Shown: positions 3,843 through 58,272 of the stretch, piece by piece
How the letters are laid out: the number at the start of each line of letters is the position of its first letter
Position numbering within the stretch: position 1 is the first letter of the stretch
Sequence record: PQ306574.1
From: Escherichia phage vB_EcoM_PTE-Eco09
Length of the DNA stretch: 64,000 nt
Reading direction: 5' to 3' (one strand)
The notes under the pieces: model-generated
The model's input: only the letters and a program-made list of their open reading frames with translations
Told to the model about the DNA's origin: nothing
Databases searched by the model: none
Program-made: the position numbers and the translations under genes

Positions 3843-4205
3843 ATGATTGAAATTAATTTGATTAGTCCTGAAAACTTCCTTAAAATTAAGGAAACTTTAA
3901 CCCGCTGCGGCATTGCCAACAATCGAGACAAGACGCTGTATCAGTCTTGTCATATTCTCCAGAAGAAAGGGCGCTATTACATCGTTCATTTCAAGGAGTT
4001 GTTGAAATTAGATGGTCGTAGTGTTAAAATGACGTGGGAAGATGAATTACGCCGTAATAACATTGCAAAACTTCTTGCGCAGTGGAATCTGTGTACCCTG
4101 ATTGATAGTGATTTTGAAACTACCGAAGTTAATAATTTCCGTGTACTGTCTTTCAAACAGAAAGAAGAGTGGACGCTGATCGAGAAATATCAGATCGGGC
4201 GATAA
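3843..4205 (+). CDS. regA: translational repressor RegA
   Basis: 120 aa; MIEINL...KETLTRCGIANNRDKTLYQSCHILQKKG closely matches T4 RegA. Confidence 0.9.
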   Translation: MIEINLISPENFLKIKETLTRCGIANNRDKTLYQSCHILQKKGRYYIVHFKELLKLDGRSVKMTWEDELRRNNIAKLLAQWNLCTLIDSDFETTEVNNFRVLSFKQKEEWTLIEKYQIGR

Positions 4206-4226
4206 GATACTGATGGGATAGGGGTA

Positions 4227-4255
4227 TTGACAAACTAAGTCGATTCCCCTATAAT
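4227..4255 (+). promoter_or_regulatory. sigma70-like early promoter upstream of gene 43
   Basis: TTGACA-17 nt-TATAAT; inverted repeat ATAGGGG...CCCCTAT spans the -35/-10 region. Confidence 0.5.
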
Positions 4256-4287
4256 GAGTGTCTTTCGTAAGTGAAGGAGTTTATATT

Positions 4288-5489
4288 ATGTATTTTCTGT
4301 CATGTGAGCGAGTGGGTGATAAGATCTACGAGCGTTATATTGATGATGCTGGACAAGAACAAGAGCGTTACGTTGAATATACGCCAACTTTATTTCATCA
4401 TGCCGCGCCTGGTATGGTTACGAATTATAAAGATATCTATGGCAAGCCTTGCATTGCTAAAAAATTCCCATCTATGAACGAGGCCAACAAATGGCGTAAA
4501 AAGATGGGAGAAATGGGGCAGGAGGCACTAGGGATGGATGATTTTATCATCTCCTATCTGTCTGATACGTATAAAGGCGAGATTCGATATGACCGAAATA
4601 AAATCCGTGTAGCATGGGTTGATATCGAGGTCACTGCCCCAGAATTTCCTAAACCAGAAGAAGCGAAATATCCTATCGATGCAATTACGCATTATGATTC
4701 CGTACATGATCGTTTCTTTGTATTTGACTTGAAAGGAAAAAACGGTGAAATCTGGGAAGCAAGCAAGTCTATTCTTCGACCTGATATTGTAGAGCGCGTT
4801 GTTTATAACGTCTATGACACAGAAGATGAATTGCTGTTAGAATACATCCGATTCTTTGAGGAAAACCGACCCGTTGGTTTCACTGGCTGGAACACAGAAA
4901 CATTCGATATTCCATATATCATTAAACGTATCAGTAATAAGTTCGGAAGTAGAACCGCTAACCGTCTAAGCCCGTGCGGTAAGATTAAATCCAGAATCTC
5001 ACAGGATGATTTTGGCAACGAGCGTGAAGCATTTACGATCATGGGGATCGAAAGCCTTGATTATATTGACCTGTACAAGAAATTTAGCTTTACGACTCAA
5101 CCAACATATGCGTTAGATTATGTTGCTGAATATGAGACAGGAATCGGTAAGGTTGATTATGATGGTCCGTTAAAGAAATTGCGTGATGACAACCATCAAC
5201 TTTACATCGATTATAACATCGGCGACGTTGATCGTGTGCTGGCGATTGATAAAAAGCGTGGATTTATCGATCTTGTGTATAGTCTATGTTTCTATGCAAA
5301 GATTAAATTTAACCATGTTTATAACCCGATGAAAGTATGGGATGCTATTATCTTCGGATCTCTGAAAGCTGAGGGTAAAGTAGTACCGGAAAATAAGATA
5401 CAGCCTAAGCAGACTTATCCTGGCGCATTTGTAAAAGAACCTGTGCCGAATGCTTACCGCTGGATGATGAGTTTTGACCTTACTTCCCT
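4288..5489 (+). CDS. 43: DNA polymerase gp43, exon 1 (N-terminal/exonuclease half, ends within the SLYPS motif)
   Basis: MYFLSCERVGDKIYERYID matches the T4 gp43 N-terminus; FDIEV exo motif. The frame hits a stop 7 nt after the proposed 5' splice site. Confidence 0.9.
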
Positions 5490-9466: not shown

Positions 9467-9784
9467 ATGGATAAGAAACCAACAAGTTTAGAAGAAGCAC
9501 ACGGCTTGATTCAAGAAGCAATGAAGACAGTTATTCAGGAACTGATAATTGTTGATGAAGAGGGAGAACATCATATTGTCTATATTCATAATGTTGAATA
9601 CGATACAGACACTAAAGGTATTGTGGTCGACTACTCCACGCCGTCAGATCGTGATGTGGTATATCCACACGTCATTAAGGCGTTAACCGCGCAGATCAAA
9701 GAAGCAGAAGAAAAGTTGAAAAAAGAAACTTTCTGGTATAAACTCAAGACCTTTGTTATGCGTGTAGTTGGGGGCTATGTATGA
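9467..9784 (+). CDS. hypothetical protein; position matches gene 40
   Basis: 105 aa with hydrophobic C-terminus, located between uvsX and 41. Confidence 0.4.
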   Translation: MDKKPTSLEEAHGLIQEAMKTVIQELIIVDEEGEHHIVYIHNVEYDTDTKGIVVDYSTPSDRDVVYPHVIKALTAQIKEAEEKLKKETFWYKLKTFVMRVVGGYV

Positions 9785-11193
9785 TTAAAACTATCTTTTC
9801 ACAGTTGATTTACAATGGCGCATTCTTTACGAATGTATGGCCTCACCTTAAAGCGGACTACTTCACCGAAGACGAAGAAAAACTGATTTATAAGCTGATT
9901 AAAAAGCACGTAGACGAATATTCCAACATTCCTACGCCAACTGCATTACAGATTGCTTTAGACAAGGAGAGAGGCAATCAGACAACATATGAAGGGGCTA
10001 AAACTCTTCTTGATTCGCTTGAGAATACACCGGAAGACCTTGATTGGTTAATGAAGGAAACCGAAAAATTTATTCGTGACCGTGCCATGTATAATGCAAT
10101 GTCACGGGCGCTAGAGATTCAGGCGAACGCACAACTACCAAAAGAGAAACAGAATAAGAAATTGCCGAGTGAGGGTGCTATTCCTGAGATCATGCAGGAA
10201 GCACTATCCATTACGTTTGATTCTGATGTAGGTCATGACTGGTTTAATGACTTTGAAAAACGATTCTTGCTATATCAGACTAAGGCGAATAAGATCCCGT
10301 TTAAGCTGCCGATGTTGAATAAAATCACGAAAGGAGGTGCGGAAAGAAAAACGCTAAATGTGTTGCTTGCTGGTGTAAATGTTGGTAAATCGCTTGGATT
10401 ATGTTCTCTTGCTGCGGATTATATGGAATGTGGTTATGATGTATTGTATATCTCAATGGAGATGGCAGAGCATGTCGTAGCCAAACGTATCGACGCAAAC
10501 TTGCTTGACATTACATTAGATGAATTGGATAATGGTAATGTTTCTTTTGCGGAATATTCCGCACGTATGAAGCGTGTTAAGAATAAGAAGATCGGAGATC
10601 GTCCGGTTGGAAAATTGATGATCAAGCAGTATCCGACTGGTGGCGCGAACTCCAATCACTTTGAGGCGTTAATGAATGAATTGCGACTCAAGAAACAGTT
10701 TAAACCTGATGTTGTGATTGTTGACTATCTGGGGATTTGCGCATCGTCTCGCTTGCGTGTATACTCTGAGAATAGCTACACTCTCGTTAAAGCGATTGCG
10801 GAAGAACTTCGCGGATTTTTTGTTAAGTGGGATGTTGTTGGTTGGACTGCGGCACAAACTACCCGTGCTGGTTGGGATGCTTCCGACCTTAACATGAGTG
10901 ATACCGCTGAATCAGCAGGTCTTCCGGCTACTGCCGACTTTATGTTGGGTGTTATCGAAACCGAAGACCTGGCTAAAATGGGCGTCCAACTCATGAAGCA
11001 GATCAAGTCTCGTTACGGTGATAAGAACTATTATTCACGGTTTAACGTTGGTGTGAAAAAAGGCAATCAGCGTTGGTATGAAGTCCCAAACCAGATCGCA
11101 GATCAGGAGAATGCACAAGTTAAACCACAAAGCGCACAGCAAGCCGAGAAACGAGAAAAACTCGACGAGCTAGCAAATAACATGACTTTCTAA
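9781..11193 (+). CDS. 41: replicative DNA helicase gp41 (DnaB-like)
   Basis: 470 aa; Walker A AGVNVGKSLGL; long match to remembered T4 gp41. Confidence 0.9.
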   Translation: MIKTIFSQLIYNGAFFTNVWPHLKADYFTEDEEKLIYKLIKKHVDEYSNIPTPTALQIALDKERGNQTTYEGAKTLLDSLENTPEDLDWLMKETEKFIRDRAMYNAMSRALEIQANAQLPKEKQNKKLPSEGAIPEIMQEALSITFDSDVGHDWFNDFEKRFLLYQTKANKIPFKLPMLNKITKGGAERKTLNVLLAGVNVGKSLGLCSLAADYMECGYDVLYISMEMAEHVVAKRIDANLLDITLDELDNGNVSFAEYSARMKRVKNKKIGDRPVGKLMIKQYPTGGANSNHFEALMNELRLKKQFKPDVVIVDYLGICASSRLRVYSENSYTLVKAIAEELRGFFVKWDVVGWTAAQTTRAGWDASDLNMSDTAESAGLPATADFMLGVIETEDLAKMGVQLMKQIKSRYGDKNYYSRFNVGVKKGNQRWYEVPNQIADQENAQVKPQSAQQAEKREKLDELANNMTF

Positions 11194-25936: not shown

Positions 25937-26299
25937 ATGCTAGGTCATTCTAAAATAGAAGATTGCTCATTCAGAGCAATGAAAGATGATTTTTCGGTCC
26001 TGTACGCGTCTATCCGAGAGTTGTTTGTAGATTTTAAGCAATTCAGAGAATACAAAGGCGTTAAGATGCGGGAGTGGGTATTCTGGCCTTTCTATATCAT
26101 TACTCTGTTTTCTATGGTATTTTGTTTTGTCGGGATCACTATCGCTAGTTTTGTCACTTGCGTTTTCCTGATTATCAGGTGTATCATGTTTGCTTTGATT
26201 GCTGCCCCGTTTATTGTGTCAATCCTTCCGTTAAAATGGCTATTGGATTGGGCTGATAAATCTGATAAAGTAAAGAATGTGATTTGTAAGCGTGTATGA
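25937..26299 (+). CDS. integral membrane protein (2-3 predicted TM helices)
   Basis: Hydrophobic stretches WVFWPFYIITLFSMVFCFVGITIASFVTCVFLII and MFALIAAPFIVSILPL. Confidence 0.5.
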   Translation: MLGHSKIEDCSFRAMKDDFSVLYASIRELFVDFKQFREYKGVKMREWVFWPFYIITLFSMVFCFVGITIASFVTCVFLIIRCIMFALIAAPFIVSILPLKWLLDWADKSDKVKNVICKRV

Positions 26300-26306
26300 G
26301 GTGAAG

Positions 26307-27653
26307 ATGAATAAATCAGTTACTTACCGCAGCCTTGAAAGCATTGTACATAATGAAGCTAAGGAATATGCGATCTATTCTGCCGAGGAACGCGGGATTC
26401 CTCAATTAGTGGATGGGCTTAAACCAGTGCAACGCTTTGTTATGGAATGTGCTTTGCAAAAGAGTAAAGGCGACCGTAAGAAATTCCGTAAGATGGCAGA
26501 TATTGGATCTGGTGTCGCTGAGTTGGGGTATCACCACGGCGAAACTAATGCCGTAGAAGCCGGATCACTCATGGCGAATACATGGAGCAATAATACTCCA
26601 CTGCTTGACGGTCAAGGTAACTTCGGATCGCGTTTAGTCCAGAAAGCAGGAGCGGCACGTTATATCTTTGCTCGTGTGCATGAAAACTTCTTTAAAATCT
26701 ATAAAGATATGAATTGCGCACCTAAGCACGAAGATCTGGAACACATCCCGCCAGCGTTCTACTTGCCAGTTGTGCCAATGGTATTGGCTAATGGTATTAG
26801 TGGTATTGCTTCAGGGTATAAAACTGACATTTTACCGCATTCACTGGAAAGCCTTATTGAATGCACAGAGCTAGCACTTGCCGGAAAACTGGATAAAGAA
26901 CCTAATGTTCAATTCCCGAAATTCACGGGTAAAGTTATCCCGCGAGATGATCGCGATGGTGTGATTCTTGAGGGTACATATGAACTAAACGGCAAGACTA
27001 AACTGACAATATCAGAAGTTCCTTATAAGTTCGACCGTGAAGAATATGTAGCGGTACTGGATGCACTGGAAGAAAAAGATCTGATTGTATCGTATAATGA
27101 CCGTTGCTCTAAGGACGGATTCAGATTTGAAGTAACACTGAAACGCGATTATTTCAAAAGCGAAGATGAATCCGCTCGACATGAGCAAATCATGAAGGAT
27201 TTTAAACTAACACAGTTAGTAGCCCAGAATATCGTAGTGGTTAATGAACGTGGTTTAGTAGAAGTATTCGAGAAAGCGAGCGATCTGATCCGTCGATTCG
27301 TCGAAATCCGATTAGGGTATGTCGATAAACGCATTGAATTGATGCAAGCGGAAACGCTGGAAGCATACAATTATGCAATGGCTAAAGCCGAATTTATCGA
27401 CCGCGTAATTAAGGGCGAAATCGAGCTACAGGGCAAGAAAAAGGCCGAGGTAATGCAATCCATCAATGGACATGAAAAACTGCGTCCATACGCCGATAAG
27501 CTAGTTTCTATGCCATTGTATAGCGTTACTCAAGAAGAGTATGATCGACTGGTCAAAGATGCCGATAAACATCATAGTGAATATGAGTATTGGACAAAGA
27601 CGACCGCAATGAAGGAATATAAGAAAGATCTTAAAGAACTTAAGAAGGGTTGA
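26307..27653 (+). CDS. 52: topoisomerase II medium subunit gp52 (GyrA-like)
   Basis: GLKPVQRF, ANTWSNNTPLLDGQGNFGSR, ARYIFARV; ATG 26307 with RBS. The track ORF begins at an upstream GTG. Confidence 0.9.
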   Translation: MNKSVTYRSLESIVHNEAKEYAIYSAEERGIPQLVDGLKPVQRFVMECALQKSKGDRKKFRKMADIGSGVAELGYHHGETNAVEAGSLMANTWSNNTPLLDGQGNFGSRLVQKAGAARYIFARVHENFFKIYKDMNCAPKHEDLEHIPPAFYLPVVPMVLANGISGIASGYKTDILPHSLESLIECTELALAGKLDKEPNVQFPKFTGKVIPRDDRDGVILEGTYELNGKTKLTISEVPYKFDREEYVAVLDALEEKDLIVSYNDRCSKDGFRFEVTLKRDYFKSEDESARHEQIMKDFKLTQLVAQNIVVVNERGLVEVFEKASDLIRRFVEIRLGYVDKRIELMQAETLEAYNYAMAKAEFIDRVIKGEIELQGKKKAEVMQSINGHEKLRPYADKLVSMPLYSVTQEEYDRLVKDADKHHSEYEYWTKTTAMKEYKKDLKELKKG

Positions 27654-28302: not shown

Positions 28303-28331
28303 TTGACTTACAGAATCCAACATTGCATAAT
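28303..28331 (+). promoter_or_regulatory. sigma70-like early promoter
   Basis: TTGACT-17 nt-CATAAT; conserved leader CCAAACAAAAGGAGAATCA before the ATG. Confidence 0.55.
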
Positions 28332-28639: not shown

Positions 28640-28810
28640 ATGAACTGGTATAAAATTTGGAAAAATCAGGTTGAGGCTTATCTAGGGTATAAGCCCACCG
28701 ACAAAGAATTACTTGATGCAATGTACGAAGACGGACTAAATCCGAAAGTAGCCGCACAAGAATACGCGGAATGGGTGAAGGTCGAAGATAACCTAAAGGG
28801 GAAACTATGA
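28640..28810 (+). CDS. hypothetical small protein
   Basis: 56-aa ORF from the ATG at 28640. Confidence 0.35.
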   Translation: MNWYKIWKNQVEAYLGYKPTDKELLDAMYEDGLNPKVAAQEYAEWVKVEDNLKGKL

Positions 28811-29031
28811 AGAAAATGATTGCGATTGCTTTGCTGGCTAGTGCATGTACGGTAAATGCTAATACCGCAGCGATGGTCGCGGCTGTAACTGCTGCAAATG
28901 CGTCTGTTATGGCATCTCAAGAGGCAGCACGCCAGCAAGCACAACAAGAAGCCCAGCGAAAAGCACATGAGGCGACGAAAAATTTTCACGAAAATAACAA
29001 AAAACTAGTTGACGCCAAAGGTCATCGGTAG
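28807..29031 (+). CDS. small secreted/periplasmic protein (signal peptide)
   Basis: MKKMIAIALLASACTVNA signal-like N-terminus, then an Ala/Gln-rich helix. Confidence 0.45.
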   Translation: MKKMIAIALLASACTVNANTAAMVAAVTAANASVMASQEAARQQAQQEAQRKAHEATKNFHENNKKLVDAKGHR

Positions 29032-29037
29032 TATTAT
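29009..29037 (+). promoter_or_regulatory. sigma70-like early promoter
   Basis: TTGACG-17 nt-TATTAT, then ACTCCCATACCGAAACGAA leader. Confidence 0.5.
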
Positions 29038-29071
29038 ACTCCCATACCGAAACGAACTGGAGGAAATAAAA

Positions 29072-29218
29072 ATGGTTAAAGTTAATGTTATCGAAGTTGC
29101 ACTGTACGACGCTGGAATCTTCCTGAATGAAAAAGAAGCTGCTGTGCTCGACGAACTGAAAACTGTTTTTGTTCCTGTAGTAGAAGACGTTGAAGCAATC
29201 AAAAATCGCTTCTCGTAA
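29072..29218 (+). CDS. hypothetical small protein
   Basis: 48-aa ORF with RBS GGAGG. Confidence 0.35.
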   Translation: MVKVNVIEVALYDAGIFLNEKEAAVLDELKTVFVPVVEDVEAIKNRFS

Positions 29219-29321
29219 ACTGTCCCGCGAAGCATTCGATATGATTGACCCGGTTTTCAAAGTTATGCACGAATGCGCGGTGATGATGACCGAAGAAGAA
29301 GCGAAAAATTTCTAAAACTGG

Positions 29322-29356
29322 TTGATGTAAAGAAATGGGAGTATTAACATACTCCC
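29322..29356 (+). promoter_or_regulatory. sigma70-like early promoter with palindrome around the -10
   Basis: TTGATG-17 nt-TAACAT; perfect inverted repeat GGGAGTA-N6-TACTCCC (29337-29356). Confidence 0.5.
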
Positions 29357-29383
29357 ACACAGAAACGAAAGAAGGAGAATCAC

Positions 29384-29596
29384 ATGAAATCTATTGAGCA
29401 AGTAGTGACCGAATTTATGAGCTACGAAGGAAACCGCATCTTTGGACGTTCTCAAGTTCGCGAGATCGTAGAAGAAGTTGCGGGAGAGTTTGCGGAATCT
29501 GGTCACGTTATCACGCAAGAACGTAAAGAAGAAGCTGTAAGCCAGATCATGGCTATGCAGAAAATGCGTATTAATGCACGAGCGGGTAAAAATTAA
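29384..29596 (+). CDS. hypothetical small protein
   Basis: 70-aa ORF with RBS. Confidence 0.45.
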   Translation: MKSIEQVVTEFMSYEGNRIFGRSQVREIVEEVAGEFAESGHVITQERKEEAVSQIMAMQKMRINARAGKN

Positions 29597-29603
29597 AAAG
29601 TAG

Positions 29604-29638
29604 TTGACACCGGATTAAGGGAGTAGTAAGATACTCCC
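29604..29638 (+). promoter_or_regulatory. sigma70-like early promoter with palindrome around the -10
   Basis: TTGACA-17 nt-TAAGAT; GGGAGTA-GTAAGA-TACTCCC (29619-29638). Confidence 0.55.
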
Positions 29639-29666
29639 ATCAAGACAAAACATTGAGGAATATATT

Positions 29667-30425
29667 ATGAAAAACATTATCGCTGCTATCGTTCTTTCCG
29701 CTACTGCTTTCGGTGCTAATGCTGCGTCCTTTGATTGCGCTAAAGCCACTACCAAATCAGAGAAGTTTATTTGTGCTAATGAGTCAATCTCCGCACTGGA
29801 TTCGAAACTTCATGAAGTATATGTTAAGGCTGTTAAGATTGATCCGTCTCTTAAACAAGAGCAACGTAACTGGAATAAAACTGTTCGTGATACAATGATC
29901 AATATCGGGCAGATTCAGCCACTGGAGGCTGTATATAACGCTCAAATCCAAAACTTGATGAATGTATTACCTAAAGAAGAAACCGCGTCAGAAAGCGATT
30001 CAGAGACTTCTGTGAAGGTTGAAGAAGAACAACCGAAACAGGAAGCAAAAGTGGTAGAAGAACCGAAGGTCGAAACTTTTACCTATCAATGCACCGTTCG
30101 TTATGAGTGGAGTATGAAAGATGGAATTTCTACCAAAATTAAAGAAGCGCCACTGTATGCCAAATATGGAAATCAACCAGGAGATCTTAAAGTAACCATT
30201 AAAAATGGGAAGATGGTTGATTTTGTATACATTGATGAATACAACGTACACAAAGCAAACGTACAAGAAACCGTTATGACTAAAGGCGGGTTTTATAAGA
30301 ATGTTGGCAAGAAAGATCTATATGAATACTCCGTTTTCGAACCAAACGACGGAACTATTCGATTTGAAAAACGTCATCCGACATTCGGTGGAGCAATTGA
30401 TGTAGATCAATACGTTTGCAAGTAA
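29667..30425 (+). CDS. secreted protein with DUF1311/LprI-like N-terminal domain
   Basis: Signal peptide MKNIIAAIVLSATAFGANA; then FDCAKATTKSEKFICANESISALDSKLHEVY, matching the DUF1311 pattern as remembered. Confidence 0.5.
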   Translation: MKNIIAAIVLSATAFGANAASFDCAKATTKSEKFICANESISALDSKLHEVYVKAVKIDPSLKQEQRNWNKTVRDTMINIGQIQPLEAVYNAQIQNLMNVLPKEETASESDSETSVKVEEEQPKQEAKVVEEPKVETFTYQCTVRYEWSMKDGISTKIKEAPLYAKYGNQPGDLKVTIKNGKMVDFVYIDEYNVHKANVQETVMTKGGFYKNVGKKDLYEYSVFEPNDGTIRFEKRHPTFGGAIDVDQYVCK

Positions 30426-30436
30426 GAGGTTAAATT

Positions 30437-30724
30437 ATGCAATTCAATAACATGAAGGTCACAAAAGATTGGTGGGATGCAATGCGAGATACTCCAGAAA
30501 CCAAATTGAATGAGACCACAACCACAATACAAGTTGATTACGAAGATCCTAAAGACATATACAGAGAGATTTTAATCAGAGAGCTTATAAAAGCTGGAAA
30601 CTATCAAACACCAGATGGCCTTATTGACATGATGGTTAAAGGTCTGTATAGTGGTAAAAATCCAGATATTTTACCGTGGTACGAGGGATATTTTAAAACA
30701 TATCGTGATCACAACCGAAAATAA
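30437..30724 (+). CDS. hypothetical protein
   Basis: 95-aa ORF. Confidence 0.45.
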   Translation: MQFNNMKVTKDWWDAMRDTPETKLNETTTTIQVDYEDPKDIYREILIRELIKAGNYQTPDGLIDMMVKGLYSGKNPDILPWYEGYFKTYRDHNRK

Positions 30725-32722: not shown

Positions 32723-33379
32723 TTATCTAATCCTTCCGAGGATTCTGGCAGATTGATTGCAAAGAGTATCTAAATTCTCAATGTCAATATCCGGTTTATT
32801 CTTCCATGCAATGGCGATACTACCAGAATAGACATTATCGAGATTGAATATAGGGCAAGAATACATAAACCCTATATCGATACTCTCTAATTTCTTTTCT
32901 CTTGATGGAATATACTGGAAATCTTTATCGGTAAAATAGGATTTACCTAAAAGATGCCTACGATATTCTTCACTCGTTTTATTGATAGGGAATCCGCCTA
33001 AATTCTTTTCGTCGATTGTATGAGGTAACTTTCCTTCATATGCCACCAAATCAACAAAATAGTTTAGGTTTTTCGGACGAAAACTAAAAACAGCAGAAAA
33101 ATCGGCATCAGCCGACACATGAACTATCTGTAACTGCTCCTGTGCTGCATTATCAAAATTGCGGTCTTTCTCTACCTGGAGAACGTGAGCATAAGTCTCA
33201 TAACGAGTCTCTTTATAAAGCGCAAATAACTCGTTTTTACTATAAACGACAAATGCTAATATGGACAACACGACGGCAGCAAAAACACGAAGTACGAGCA
33301 ACTCCGTGCTTTTAGTTGTGAAAATAGCGCGCAGGACATTTGAGATAGCAAAGTCTTTCCCTTTTTCAGAAACTTGCAT
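32723..33379 (-). CDS. t: holin T (T4 t-type, single N-terminal TM plus periplasmic domain)
   Basis: 218 aa; EQLQIVHVSADADFSAVFSFRPKNLNYFVDLVAYEGKLP...ARILGRIR matches remembered T4 gp t. Confidence 0.9.
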   Translation of the reverse strand: MQVSEKGKDFAISNVLRAIFTTKSTELLVLRVFAAVVLSILAFVVYSKNELFALYKETRYETYAHVLQVEKDRNFDNAAQEQLQIVHVSADADFSAVFSFRPKNLNYFVDLVAYEGKLPHTIDEKNLGGFPINKTSEEYRRHLLGKSYFTDKDFQYIPSREKKLESIDIGFMYSCPIFNLDNVYSGSIAIAWKNKPDIDIENLDTLCNQSARILGRIR

Positions 33380-33692: not shown

Positions 33693-36635
33693 TTAATTCT
33701 TTTTAAGTTCCGCTAGTTCAGCTTTAACGGCTTTCAATTCTTCGCTCATTTCCTGAAACGCCTTAATTAAAAGAGCGTTGACAGCGGAGTTAGAAATTGT
33801 TAAGATCTCTTCTGGATTATCTGGATCGCCGATCTTAGAAGTTGTTACGGCTTCCGGCAATTCTTTTTCAAGATCCTGAGCAATAATACCAACTTCATGA
33901 GCAATGACAGTACGGTCGGTTAAAGATTTAACCTTGTCATAGGTGTATACCGTCAAGCGATTAACTTTATCGGTTGCATTCTCTTTATACTCTTCCTTGT
34001 TGATTTTAAGGCGAGCATCAGAACGAATATACACATCGTTAAAGTTACCATTGCGACCAGCTTGGAAATCACCGGAGGCGTTAAAGTCAAAGTTTGTGGT
34101 ATGAATATGAAGACGTGCCATAGCATTAGTAATAACACCACTAGGAACGTGTACACCCATTGCTGCGATGTGGTCGAAACCCCATTTGGTCGCTTTCCAT
34201 ACGTTATATGCGGAAGTTTGAGCATTAGGACAATCAACCAATAAGCCAGCAGCGCGAGTTTTCCATTCTGACCATGCACCACCTTGTACTTCTCCGCGAA
34301 TCAGGCCATTACCATCACCGGATACAGTGCCAGATTCCAACTGGATCATTTTATCCGCAAATTTCCACGCCTGGGCTTGTTTCTGACCACGGAAGCGAAT
34401 AACACCAGCATCATCGCAGTACATCAAGCCTAACTCTAAACCGTTTGGATCTCTAAACCAGATGTGCTTATTGCCAGTGCGTTTAAACTCAATATCAGCA
34501 CCGTTCAGGGTAATATTACCGCCAGTGTGAATTGCTTTAGGCTTAACAGTACCATTAATGCCAAACTCGATTAATTCAGTACCCGGACCACCCGCACGTT
34601 GAGTATACCAATGCCAGCCGCTTTCATCAGCACATTCAAATACTTGTTTACGAGCATCAGCGCCCCATGCACGAATATTGAAACTAGAAGTAGCTGTACC
34701 CTTACCCCAGCGAATCAGACCAGCAGATTCCAAATCACCGAAGAATTTAGTTTTAATCGCACCAGTTGCTAAAGTACGTTCAGTGGTGAAGTGAGCACCT
34801 TTACTATCTTCAAGCTGTATAACGTTATCACGAGCGTTATTGCTATCGCCCCAATGACTCAAACGGAAATAGTCGCGGGATTGTCCAGCACCAGCATCAA
34901 ATGTTAAATATTGGCCTTTAATGTATGTGTTTCCAGCAAAACGAGCAGCACGACTTGCACGTTCTAAGACTAATGCACCTTCTTTACCATCACCACCCAA
35001 AGTAACATTACCGCTACCCAGATTGTAAGTGAATGGACGATAGCCGTTCCAACCACCAAATTTATCATTTTCGGCAGTAGACAGAAGATATACGTTTTGA
35101 CCATCATTACGCCAGAATGCACCATAGTTACCGTAAATCATACGGAATGCATCACTGTTAGCAGCTACATATTGACCATTGGTGTATACAATTTTTGTTT
35201 TTCCTGTAGTCAAATTTACTTGTCCACTACCTTCCAAATCAAATGAGTTAGCACCAACATCATTACGCCACACAAAACCATCACTAGTACCATCCGCATG
35301 ACCGATATAACCACTACGTTGGTTTTTACCATCACGACGATCCCACCACGCCATATATGCAGCTTGACCAGTCTGTCGATGTAAAGTCATCGCATTACCA
35401 CCACCGTGCAATTCCATTTTACCAGTAATTACATATCCTTTATAATTACCCGGTATTGCACTATTAGAATCAATTCTAATAACTTCTGTAGAATCTGTAG
35501 CACCAGTAGCAAGACGATATACAGCACCCTGAACGGTTTCATGCCAGGTCATTTCATTATAGTTACTACGGAATTTACGAATATATTTTCGTCCAGTACC
35601 CCTATCATTACTCAAGTGAACAATATCATAACTGTTTTGTGTGTTATCGTCAAAACTCAACACACCTCGTTTGTTTTCGGTGTTGAAAAGAGTTACAGCA
35701 CGACCGCCAATAACATTATCACCAGCAGGACGTTCAGCAACAAAATCTGGAACGTCATGAACTACCAGATTAACACCAACACTTTTACCAAATTCAACAA
35801 TAACGTTATCAGTGTAACGCTGATATTTCACATAGATATCATAGTTATCACCAGAAGTATTAACAGCCAAAACATCAAATGATTTGTTTGTATTTCGGCG
35901 ATATGCAATAACGTTAACACCTTTAGGGCGACCATTTCCACTGCGAATAACAATTTCTACAATATCAACTTGATCGTATGCAGTAACGTTATATCCGTTA
36001 CCGCCATGAATACGGAAAAATACGCTAAGACCGTTTTGTGGAATCATTGCAGTTGCTAATTTAAAATAGCCTTCAACGATATCACTAGGAGATGTAGCAA
36101 GTTTAACGTTCTTAACAAACATACGGTCAACTTCTTGTTTGCTATAGACGTTCAATTCTCCTGGAGTTGGTTTATCACCTTCGTGATACATTTTATAGCT
36201 AAATGCTTTTTGACCTTCTCTATTATAGCCATAGGTTTCAACACGAGATCCAGCAGACGCATAACGGAAAGTAAATCCGCGACCGTGCGCTTTACCGGCA
36301 GAATGAGGAACGTTAAGAGTTAGATCCCTGAGTCCATCTTGACCATTGGTACGGAAAGCACCAAAGTAGTTAAGATCTCTCGCTGTCTGGTCTTCCAAAT
36401 AGTTAGCTGTTTTACTTAAGATATAATTATTACCTTTAACCTTACCCGCCATTGTAACATCGCGGTCATACACCGGAGGACAACTTAAATTGATAATATC
36501 ACCGGAATCATTTTTAGTAAGAAGATATTGATCCGCAAGGTTGATTGCCAATTCCCCCGGATTCATCGTACTAGCATCCGGTTTACGACCTTTAGTGCTA
36601 GTGCGTTTAAATTGGATTCTGCTTAAATCTGCCAT
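33693..36635 (-). CDS. 37: long tail fibre distal subunit gp37 with C-terminal intramolecular chaperone domain
   Basis: 980 aa; N-terminus MADLSRIQFKRTSTKGRKPDAS...GELAINLAD matches the T4 gp37 N-terminus; C-terminal SDARLKINKEEY plus coiled coil is typical of autoproteolytic chaperone domains. Confidence 0.8.
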   Translation of the reverse strand: MADLSRIQFKRTSTKGRKPDASTMNPGELAINLADQYLLTKNDSGDIINLSCPPVYDRDVTMAGKVKGNNYILSKTANYLEDQTARDLNYFGAFRTNGQDGLRDLTLNVPHSAGKAHGRGFTFRYASAGSRVETYGYNREGQKAFSYKMYHEGDKPTPGELNVYSKQEVDRMFVKNVKLATSPSDIVEGYFKLATAMIPQNGLSVFFRIHGGNGYNVTAYDQVDIVEIVIRSGNGRPKGVNVIAYRRNTNKSFDVLAVNTSGDNYDIYVKYQRYTDNVIVEFGKSVGVNLVVHDVPDFVAERPAGDNVIGGRAVTLFNTENKRGVLSFDDNTQNSYDIVHLSNDRGTGRKYIRKFRSNYNEMTWHETVQGAVYRLATGATDSTEVIRIDSNSAIPGNYKGYVITGKMELHGGGNAMTLHRQTGQAAYMAWWDRRDGKNQRSGYIGHADGTSDGFVWRNDVGANSFDLEGSGQVNLTTGKTKIVYTNGQYVAANSDAFRMIYGNYGAFWRNDGQNVYLLSTAENDKFGGWNGYRPFTYNLGSGNVTLGGDGKEGALVLERASRAARFAGNTYIKGQYLTFDAGAGQSRDYFRLSHWGDSNNARDNVIQLEDSKGAHFTTERTLATGAIKTKFFGDLESAGLIRWGKGTATSSFNIRAWGADARKQVFECADESGWHWYTQRAGGPGTELIEFGINGTVKPKAIHTGGNITLNGADIEFKRTGNKHIWFRDPNGLELGLMYCDDAGVIRFRGQKQAQAWKFADKMIQLESGTVSGDGNGLIRGEVQGGAWSEWKTRAAGLLVDCPNAQTSAYNVWKATKWGFDHIAAMGVHVPSGVITNAMARLHIHTTNFDFNASGDFQAGRNGNFNDVYIRSDARLKINKEEYKENATDKVNRLTVYTYDKVKSLTDRTVIAHEVGIIAQDLEKELPEAVTTSKIGDPDNPEEILTISNSAVNALLIKAFQEMSEELKAVKAELAELKKN

Positions 36636-54708: not shown

Positions 54709-54881
54709 TGGCTACTGTATGGTTATTGATTGCAATAAGCAATTCAATGTATAATTACGGAAATATGTCAAGCATTGAGTTTGCAACAAAGCAGGATTGC
54801 GTTAAAGCTCGCGAGATTATCCGCGAAGACAATAAACGCTTTATGAATCTATATTGCGTTGAAAAACAAAAGGTGAACTAA
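54708..54881 (+). CDS. small hydrophobic-N-terminus protein (tandem paralog 1)
   Basis: 57 aa MATVWLLIAISNSMYNYGNMSSIEF...; TAATG overlap. Confidence 0.4.
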   Translation: MATVWLLIAISNSMYNYGNMSSIEFATKQDCVKAREIIREDNKRFMNLYCVEKQKVN

Positions 54882-55048
54882 TGGCTACATTATGGTTATT
54901 GCTTTCCGTTAGCGTAGGCGTATATAATAAAGGAACTGTTACCAGCGTAGAGTTTTCATCATATCAAAATTGTTTTGAAGCTGTGCAGGAATTGCAGCAG
55001 GATAGCGAAATAAACAGAAATACTAAGTTCTTTTGTGTTAAAAAGTGA
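54881..55048 (+). CDS. small hydrophobic-N-terminus protein (tandem paralog 2)
   Basis: 55 aa MATLWLLLSVSVGVYNKGTVTSVEF...; similar to the preceding ORF. Confidence 0.4.
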   Translation: MATLWLLLSVSVGVYNKGTVTSVEFSSYQNCFEAVQELQQDSEINRNTKFFCVKK

Positions 55049-55057
55049 TAGTGAGGT

Positions 55058-55117
55058 GAATTAATCCTTCTTCTGGATACCTGATAAATAATGGTATACA
55101 GAAAAGAGGATTAATTC
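55058..55117 (+). promoter_or_regulatory. RBS-sequestering inverted repeat with late-promoter-like element upstream of the mobE-like gene
   Basis: Perfect 11-bp inverted repeat GAATTAATCCT (55058-55068) / AGGATTAATTC (55107-55117); the 3' arm covers the RBS; loop contains GATAAATAAT. Confidence 0.55.
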
Positions 55118-58012: not shown

Positions 58013-58047
58013 TTGACAGCATGAAACGGGGGTAGTAATATACCCCC
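58013..58047 (+). promoter_or_regulatory. sigma70-like early promoter with palindrome around the -10
   Basis: TTGACA-17 nt-TAATAT; perfect inverted repeat GGGGGTA-GTAATA-TACCCCC; CATCGAAACGAAA leader. Confidence 0.55.
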
Positions 58048-58237: not shown

Positions 58238-58272
58238 TTGACAGCATATCACGGGAGTAGTAAGATACTCCC
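58238..58272 (+). promoter_or_regulatory. sigma70-like early promoter with palindrome around the -10
   Basis: TTGACA-17 nt-TAAGAT; GGGAGTA-GTAAGA-TACTCCC. Confidence 0.55.

Follow-up and report, generated by a model that had tools for sequence, protein, structure and literature searches.

Here we report that a 252-residue protein encoded by Escherichia phage vB_EcoM_PTE-Eco09 joins an invariant N-terminal module to a C-terminal beta-barrel that is swapped as a cassette, an arrangement that is common to lytic phages and prophages and is new here. The gene lies in the 64,000-nucleotide stretch of sequence record PQ306574.1 that we analysed (hereafter the window), where it has its own promoter and encodes an exported product of two domains. 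A known domain family, DUF1311, is thereby placed in an undescribed polymorphic two-module phage architecture, for which we tentatively favour a role as an exclusion or immunity factor.

The open reading frame occupies 29667..30425 on the plus strand, from an ATG at 29667 to a stop codon at 30423-30425 (252 aa plus stop), and is the orthologue of RB49 ORF260c (UniProt Q7Y3G7) and phi1 ORF262. The initial annotation of this region had reported a 252-aa reading frame containing the peptide FDCAKATTKSEKFICANESISALDSKLHEVY; both are real, and the peptide corresponds exactly to residues 22-52. A Shine-Dalgarno sequence, GAGGA, can be read from the plus strand at 29655..29659, 7 nt before the ATG. 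The genome around the gene is that of a Krischvirus (RB49-like, T4-related), with 96-98% DNA identity to MIZ4, Cognac and RB49. Locally, the gene sits among small plus-strand genes that are flanked by gene 52 (topoisomerase II; 26292-27653) on one side and by the minus-strand holin gene t (32723-33379) on the other, with the tail-fibre genes 37, 36 and 35 beyond t; a region of this kind has been termed a hyperplastic region by Arbiol et al. (PMC2839356). Altogether 58 Krischvirus records keep the gene, and each of five comparisons of codons 1-124 shows more synonymous than non-synonymous differences (8:1 to 12:5). Given this synonymous excess and the conservation in Krischvirus, it is therefore a real gene under purifying selection. 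The protein matches PHROG 14799, which is annotated as function unknown, and the RB49 protein bears the UniProt name [quoted passage not shown]. NCBIfam and PADLOC searches gave no significant match for the open reading frame, and phmmer with its protein gave none against PDB sequences.

A promoter scan placed a PeSL (promoter-early stem-loop) cassette at 29604..29637 on the plus strand. Its sigma-70-like promoter (29604-29632), 33 nt upstream of the gene, consists of TTGACA, a 17-nt spacer and TAAGAT, matches the consensus at 10 of 12 positions, and has its -10 hexamer inside the hairpin GGGAGTA-gtaaga-TACTCCC. The promoter forms part of a composite motif, TTGACA-N9-GGGAGTAGTAAGATACTCCC, of which the window holds an identical copy at 58238 and a variant at 58013. 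In RB49 and phi1, PeSLs have been described as strong sigma-70-like promoters with stem-loops that mediate gene shuffling (PMC2839356), and DNA homology between the window and Phi1 and JSE begins just before the cassette, at 29589-29590. The placement of the gene in an early region, proposed in the initial annotation, is borne out by this strong early-type promoter directly before the gene and by its location within the variable early region. The accompanying mention of several strong promoters is reasonable: in addition to the site at 29604, promoter-like sites with 10-11 of 12 matches are present at 28303, 29009 and 30624, but the total number of promoter-like sites in the region does not rise above that in shuffled sequence (19 versus 22.3 +/- 5.1).

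Residues 1-19 (29667..29723, plus strand) form the signal peptide. The N-terminus consists of MK, a hydrophobic run (NIIAAIVLSATAFG) and then ANA followed by A, which reads as a Sec signal peptide with a predicted signal peptidase I cleavage site between ANA and ASFDC; in an AlphaFold2 model this segment is disordered. The AxA/ASFDC junction is kept in homologues of 40% identity from Klebsiella and Aeromonas T4-like phages, so that the signal peptide originally proposed is upheld both by the AxA site read from the sequence and by the conservation of the junction in distant relatives. An L-x-x-C lipobox was sought in GANA/ASFDC and is absent, the first cysteine lying five residues past the predicted cleavage site.

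The mature protein begins with a constant helical DUF1311/LprI-N domain (residues 20-100; 29724..29966, plus strand). The initial annotation had recognised this domain from its sequence pattern, and the Pfam profile PF07007 (LprI/DUF1311) now matches residues 24-76 over profile positions 1-71 of 106 at 24.7 bits (E = 3.3e-5), exceeding the curated gathering cut-off of 22; PF07007 matches are also precomputed for many homologues. The assignment is right yet not new, because a weak DUF1311 similarity of RB49 ORF260c (E = 0.2) was tabulated in 2006 (PMC1524935) and the UniProt name already gives it. Cys24 and Cys36 are invariant across the aligned homologues, and conserved cysteines have been noted for the DUF1311 family (PMC7933661). 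The domain is predicted to fold as a small helical bundle resembling 3gi7. Most of its closest wider relatives are DUF1311 proteins that stand alone at 100-150 aa, and the module is therefore a complete unit by itself, to which phages have joined varied second modules. PHROG 4675 likewise matches residues 1-132 only.

An acidic, flexible linker rich in E, K, P and S follows (residues 101-135; 29967..30071, plus strand). Its sequence, LPKEETASESDSETSVKVEEEQPKQEAKVVEEPKV, has a pI of 4.4, residues 104-132 are modelled with pLDDT below 50 (AlphaFold2), and its length differs between alleles through indels seen in the homologue alignment. The remainder of the protein is the variable C-terminal domain (residues 136-252; 30072..30422, plus strand), predicted to be an 8-stranded antiparallel beta-barrel with Cys142 and Cys251 at its ends. 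In the full-length model the signal peptide and residues 104-132 are disordered, the first domain is helical and residues 135-251 form an all-beta domain with good confidence, and the C-terminal domain modelled alone reached a pLDDT of 88 and a pTM of 0.81 with eight strands. Cys142 on the first strand and Cys251 on the last are invariant in all alleles, from which we infer that a disulfide would form in the periplasm and probably closes the barrel. A barrel profile run against 1.84 billion representative proteins retrieved its own family only, plus a few low-complexity matches. Charge calculations were uninformative, with an N-domain near neutral, an acidic linker and barrels ranging from pI 4.9 to 8.0.

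The constant module gives way to the exchanged one at the linker. In an alignment of 15 homologues, residues 1 to ~130 are almost invariant, and past residue ~130 only Cys142, Gly153 and Cys251 are nearly constant; in the alignment of the C-domain itself the sole invariant positions are Cys10, Gly21 and Cys119. The DNA encoding the N-module (signal peptide, DUF1311 domain and linker) is 95-96% identical among Krischvirus phages and 26 E. coli chromosomes. With Phi1 and JSE the window keeps 96% DNA identity as far as nt 30068 and 30074, close to codon 135, and across the comparisons DNA homology stops at 30037-30074, which puts the recombination breakpoints within the linker. In JSE the barrel has been exchanged exactly from nt ~30070 to the stop codon, homology returning at 30424, within that codon; in Phi1 the next gene shows a weak return (70%), and full homology is restored at 30711. 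The exchanged segments fall into two classes. Class A barrels are 26-40% identical to the window allele, class B barrels are 37-73% identical to a class B reference sequence, and the two classes can be aligned with each other over the first 25 residues only (hhalign probability 6%); overall, barrel alleles are either 17-40% identical or not alignable beyond 25 residues. The window allele is the one present in 44 of the 58 sequenced Krischvirus records. Homologues occur also in many other T4-like lytic phages, and those of Klebsiella Marfavirus (250 aa) and Aeromonas phage CC2 (239 aa) have the same layout of signal peptide, AASFDC DUF1311 domain and charged linker, with C-terminal domains unrelated to the barrel of the window.

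The same N-module is found in prophages. The first 371-408 nt of the gene have a 95-96% identical copy in 26 of 5426 complete E. coli genomes, as the last prophage gene, adjoining a truncated hicB that marks the attachment site, and homology between prophage and phage starts 6 nt upstream of the ATG and stops in the linker. Two prophages with 92-99% identical flanks carry different barrels. IMG/VR yielded 11 further loci, nine of them on prophage-like contigs of 24-36 kb and two on T4-like contigs; the gene stands at the contig end in all nine prophage-like contigs, which have three barrel types among them. A near-constant N-module combined with wholesale replacement of barrels fits the signature of an arms race. 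The initial annotation had missed this two-module swapping, in our view the most striking feature of the gene.

Having recognised DUF1311, the initial annotation had gone on to suggest a lysozyme inhibitor, a step that follows the family name and is not supported in that form. M. tuberculosis LprI, like the phage protein, couples DUF1311 to a second domain, and it is this second domain, MliC, that is credited with, and is sufficient for, lysozyme resistance; for the LprI domain there is "yet no experimental evidence" of lysozyme inhibition, and Salmonella gains no protection from lysozyme through its DUF1311 protein ScwA (PMC7933661). The label "lysozyme inhibitor LprI family", attached by RefSeq to the E. 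coli prophage copies and in similar form by UniProt to the RB49 protein, is thus an inference from a neighbouring domain. Because LprI consists of DUF1311 plus MliC (PMC7933661), membership of the barrel in the MliC family was tested directly. The MliC profile PF09864 had no match in the full protein at E <= 10 and none in any of 12 C-domain variants, and hhalign of the barrel against an MliC alignment (verified E. coli MliC together with P. aeruginosa and Brucella sequences) gave a probability of 0.7%. A barrel profile search of PDB sequences returned a spurious PhoU-like match only. The SGxxY loop, which defines lysozyme binding in MliC/PliC (PMC8334348), is absent from the window protein, and no loop motif is conserved across alleles. 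In contrast to the LprI lipoprotein, the phage protein lacks a lipobox, a Pfam MliC match and SGxxY, and its barrel is hypervariable, in contrast to the conserved lysozyme-binding loops of MliC. Descent from MliC was rejected at the sequence level on the strength of the Pfam and hhalign results, leaving a generic likeness of fold: MliC-family domains are 8-stranded barrels (PMC8334348), and the phage domain, which is similar in size to MliC, is predicted to be a flattened 8-stranded antiparallel barrel, as in the MliC/PliC family, whose structures the model superposes on at 2.6-2.8 A. We also observed that an x-Y-x-C first strand and a C-terminal cysteine are common to the barrel and MliC, a resemblance that is suggestive only; in PhiA a disulfide links Cys76 and Cys154 (PMC8334348).

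We tentatively prefer the explanation that the protein is a periplasmic exclusion or immunity factor whose constant DUF1311 module, tethered to the exchangeable barrel, would probably bind a protein of the peptidoglycan-hydrolase type. A soluble periplasmic protein would be made early by the lytic phage from its own PeSL promoter, and would probably be expressed by the prophage as an end-of-prophage "moron" gene; both the promoter timing and the prophage-end position fit what is expected of exclusion genes. Its three parts would be the constant helical DUF1311 domain, a flexible acidic tether of ~35 residues and the exchangeable beta-barrel. The partner of the DUF1311 module would be a conserved protein of this type, either arriving in the periplasm or active there. 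Superinfecting T4-like phages would provide the strongest candidate in the T4-lysozyme-type domain of their tail spike, gp5; a similar muramidase toxin is the alternative. The barrel would supply a second binding specificity, placed under diversifying selection and reshuffled by recombination at the linker. Precedent for the first module comes from the E. coli O157 DUF1311 protein Etsi4, which neutralises the periplasm-acting, cell-wall-targeting effector Etse4 and rescues cells (PMC12981562), and from signal-peptide LprI-domain proteins that are predicted orphan immunities beside lysozyme-like T6SS effectors (PMC9796082, PMC12135965). A literature search found no paper addressing the function or phenotype of the phage protein.

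The case for gp5 as the target begins with its presence: Krischvirus (RB49) has a gp5 tail lysozyme with the T4-lysozyme-type domain and motif. In T4 the early protein Spackle (gp61.3) is, like the protein described here, a small, Sec-exported periplasmic phage protein, and it is a disulfide-containing helical bundle (PMC7677548), as the phage DUF1311 domain is also helical and has a conserved cysteine pair. The initial annotation had judged the two to be unrelated in sequence, correctly, since a Spackle profile (T4 plus Klebsiella phage sequences, the T4 query verified against 6x6o) scores the protein at E = 8.3. The same profile matched no open reading frame in the window or in RB49 positions 24,000-124,000 (best E 0.09), although Spackle has homologues in 927 other phage records; a tblastn Spackle match at 10846-11040 (E 0.019) was discarded as spurious, being in frame inside the gp41 helicase gene. 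With a gp5 and no detectable Spackle, the genome could accommodate a functional analogue. In Klebsiella Marfavirus phages, however, a two-module DUF1311 protein coexists with a Spackle homologue, and the protein is therefore not simply a Spackle substitute.

Comparison of gp5 with the barrels bears on which module would do the binding. The gp5 proteins of RB49, Phi1 and JSE, which carry the T4-lysozyme motif, share at least 99% identity over their length and are 100% identical in the lysozyme domain. Three different barrels accompany them, so that the idea of the barrel tracking gp5 was rejected. Being invariant in these phages, gp5 cannot explain the hypervariability of the barrel, and should gp5 be a target, its better candidate binder would for the same reason be the constant DUF1311 module; an invariant N-module would match a conserved target such as the gp5 lysozyme domain. 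The RB49 endolysin is annotated as putative and was matched to the D-Ala-D-Ala carboxypeptidase family by Nolan et al. in 2006 (PMC1524935), and a muramidase inhibitor would therefore not obviously disturb the phage's own lysis. The narrower proposal that the protein inhibits the gp5 tail lysozyme is plausible as a hypothesis, yet we rate it as unlikely in that specific form.

An exclusion or immunity factor of the kind we favour must be weighed against a protein directed at bacterial weapons, one that would shield the lysogen or infected cell from T6SS effectors or bacteriocins that act in the periplasm and degrade peptidoglycan; its two domains, DUF1311 and barrel, could then be immunity modules fused together. 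Neutralisation of Etse4 by Etsi4 is the only experimentally supported role of DUF1311 in E. coli (PMC12981562), and LprI-domain orphan immunities have been described in Pantoea (PMC9796082) and beside WHIX effectors (PMC12135965). Stand-alone DUF1311/LprI-N proteins of the Etsi4 type (PF07007; Etsi4, 3gi7) share with the phage protein a signal peptide, the N-terminal C-x11-C and a periplasmic location, and are implicated in neutralising cell-wall-targeting proteins (PMC12981562). A gene at the edge of a prophage also suits lysogenic conversion, and polymorphic C-termini would mirror polymorphic effectors. However, these relatives are single domains of 100-150 aa, whereas the phage protein continues into an acidic tether of 35 residues and a variable barrel of 117 residues, and the phage-borne gene has no adjacent effector gene: its neighbours are small phage ORFs in Krischvirus, and prophage genes plus hicAB in E. 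coli. The gain to a lytic phage in a cell that will soon lyse is doubtful, yet 58 Krischvirus records retain the gene and homologues are present in many other T4-like lytic phages. A toxin-immunity pair with the downstream 95-aa gene was rejected for want of co-variation: JSE has a class B barrel, yet its DNA past the stop codon is homologous to the window (89% over the aligned 4.8 kb), and Phi1 has a class A barrel, yet its downstream gene is only 70% identical. Overall we regard immunity to bacterial weapons as decidedly unlikely.

A very unlikely alternative is that the protein modulates host cell-wall enzymes in the manner of Salmonella ScwA, its DUF1311 domain binding or stabilising a lytic transglycosylase or other peptidoglycan enzyme so as to condition the sacculus during infection, for example by setting the timing of lysis or resisting premature lysis. 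ScwA resembles the phage protein in being a soluble, periplasmic, horizontally acquired DUF1311 protein with conserved cysteines; its disulfides are essential, it raises MltD, and its prolonged over-production led to lysis (PMC7933661). The phage gene, for its part, lies ~2.3 kb from the holin gene t (32723-33379). ScwA differs in carrying DUF1311 at the C-terminus of a 275-aa all-helical protein and in being chromosomal, not polymorphic and a regulator of MltD. Conserved host peptidoglycan enzymes would leave the hypervariable second domain of the phage protein unexplained, early expression and a prophage moron position are atypical of lysis genes, and in RB49 lysis is already controlled by rI, rIIB and t.

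Receptor masking after the fashion of T5 Llp or Cor, with the barrel binding the periplasmic face of the phage's outer-membrane receptor and so stopping re-adsorption or superinfection, is highly improbable. Small, disulfide-containing, early envelope proteins act in this way in T5, and Llp and other envelope exclusion proteins share with the protein described here a small size, expression early or from a prophage, and a phage origin (PMC9586334); the tail-fibre genes lie close by, and in variability the barrel compares with adhesins. Llp, however, is an outer-membrane lipoprotein that blocks its phage's own receptor, whereas the protein described here has no lipobox, and therefore is not anchored to the outer membrane, and has no link to a receptor-binding protein. 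All three gp38 adhesin classes, with identities to RB49 of at least 93%, about 82% and about 78%, include RB49-type as well as Phi1-type barrels, JSE pairs an RB49-type gp38 with a class B barrel, and the mosaic pattern of gp37 in the four genomes compared is unrelated to barrel type; it is this failure of the barrel to co-vary with gp37 or gp38 that disfavours the idea. Least probable of all is a lipocalin/YceI-like carrier barrel that binds a small molecule or lipid and has no role in conflict, since the structural matches are generic among 8-stranded barrels (2-13% identity) and such families seldom show allele replacement at 17-40% identity within genomes that are otherwise 95% identical.

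Krischvirus phages are used in therapy cocktails. To our knowledge, few envelope-level superinfection-exclusion proteins of coliphages are understood besides Spackle, Imm, Llp and Cor, and we know of none in Krischvirus. If the protein is indeed an exclusion or immunity factor, it would account for some of the phage-phage interference in cocktails, give DUF1311 a testable function and offer natural alleles with which specificity could be mapped. A broader proposition, doubtful at present, is that the homologues make up a polymorphic periplasmic exclusion family, with DUF1311 as a "handle" and interchangeable barrels as "warheads" traded, through recombination at the linker, between virulent T4-like phages and temperate E. 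coli prophages, each allele blocking a different competitor, be it a phage entry protein or a periplasmic toxin; if true, this would be a phage-borne counterpart of polymorphic immunity loci. On the question of exchange between the two kinds of genome, one of the two prophages with near-identical flanks has ~65 nt past the stop codon with 81% identity to the beginning of the gene that lies downstream in Krischvirus, and a Krischvirus-type segment may have moved into this prophage.

The RB49 loci for the endolysin and for gp5 lie outside the window, at 54719-55108 and 65150-66952 of the RB49 sequence. The 129-aa endolysin of RB49 matched a D-Ala-D-Ala carboxypeptidase family and not a T4 gpe-type lysozyme (Nolan et al. 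2006, PMC1524935), and RB49 gp5 retains a T4-lysozyme-type domain. On this basis, a muramidase inhibitor in this genus would have no obvious action on the phage's own endolysin.

In the Klebsiella phage VAC36 (Marfavirus), a homologue of Spackle, the periplasmic inhibitor of gp5 lysozyme in T4, is separated by 2 kb from a DUF1311 two-module gene (1607-1921 and 4001-4753 of the VAC36 locus, respectively), both within one early region flanked by helicase/primase genes and a dCTPase. Several product names in the VAC36 record appear to be mis-annotated, for example “major capsid protein” on a 55-aa ORF. Within the window itself, tblastn with T4 Spackle gave one weak hit, at 10846-11040 (27% over 74 aa, E 0.019). 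The hit shares the reading frame of the gp41 helicase gene (9781-11193), within which it falls, and was judged to be due to chance.

Three copies of the composite motif TTGACA-N9-GGGAGTAGTAAGATACTCCC, in which a 7-bp hairpin encloses the -10 hexamer, are found in the window, at 29604-29637 preceding the DUF1311 gene, at 58238-58271 and, as the variant GGGGGTAGTAATATACCCCC, at 58013-58046. This motif is the promoter/stem-loop cassette (PeSL) known from RB49-like phages. A related hairpin without a -35 box is present at 29335-29358.

Upstream of the DUF1311 gene, a segment of ∼500 bp (28798-29303) is common to the window and phage W115 and is replaced by different DNA in Phi1 and JSE. It contains a 74-aa ORF (28807-29031) with an A/Q-rich body, the start of which, MKKMIAIALLASACTVNA, resembles a signal peptide or lipoprotein; this is a predicted second small exported protein, 0.6 kb upstream of the DUF1311 gene. 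Directly downstream, a 95-aa gene (30437-30724) is kept in JSE, has DNA identity of just 70% in Phi1, and differs in the length of a threonine run in W115. In one of the E. coli prophages that carry the DUF1311 gene, ∼65 nt beyond the stop codon of that gene match the start of the 95-aa gene, a possible sign that the prophage acquired DNA from a Krischvirus-like phage. Two loci from E. coli chromosomes, L002 (12001-13324) and L003 (12001-13296), show a ∼35-kb prophage that has integrated into hicB, an antitoxin gene. This leaves hicB truncated and the neighbouring hicA intact, and no other prophage gene lies closer to the truncated-hicB junction than the DUF1311 gene.

Strong mosaicism among the window, W115, Phi1 and JSE was also seen in the distal tail-fibre protein gp37 (gene 37, 33693-36635, minus strand), for which comparison in blocks of 50 residues gave identities between 36% and 100%; the ends are conserved, and the variation lies in the middle, at approximately residues 300-500 and 600-850.
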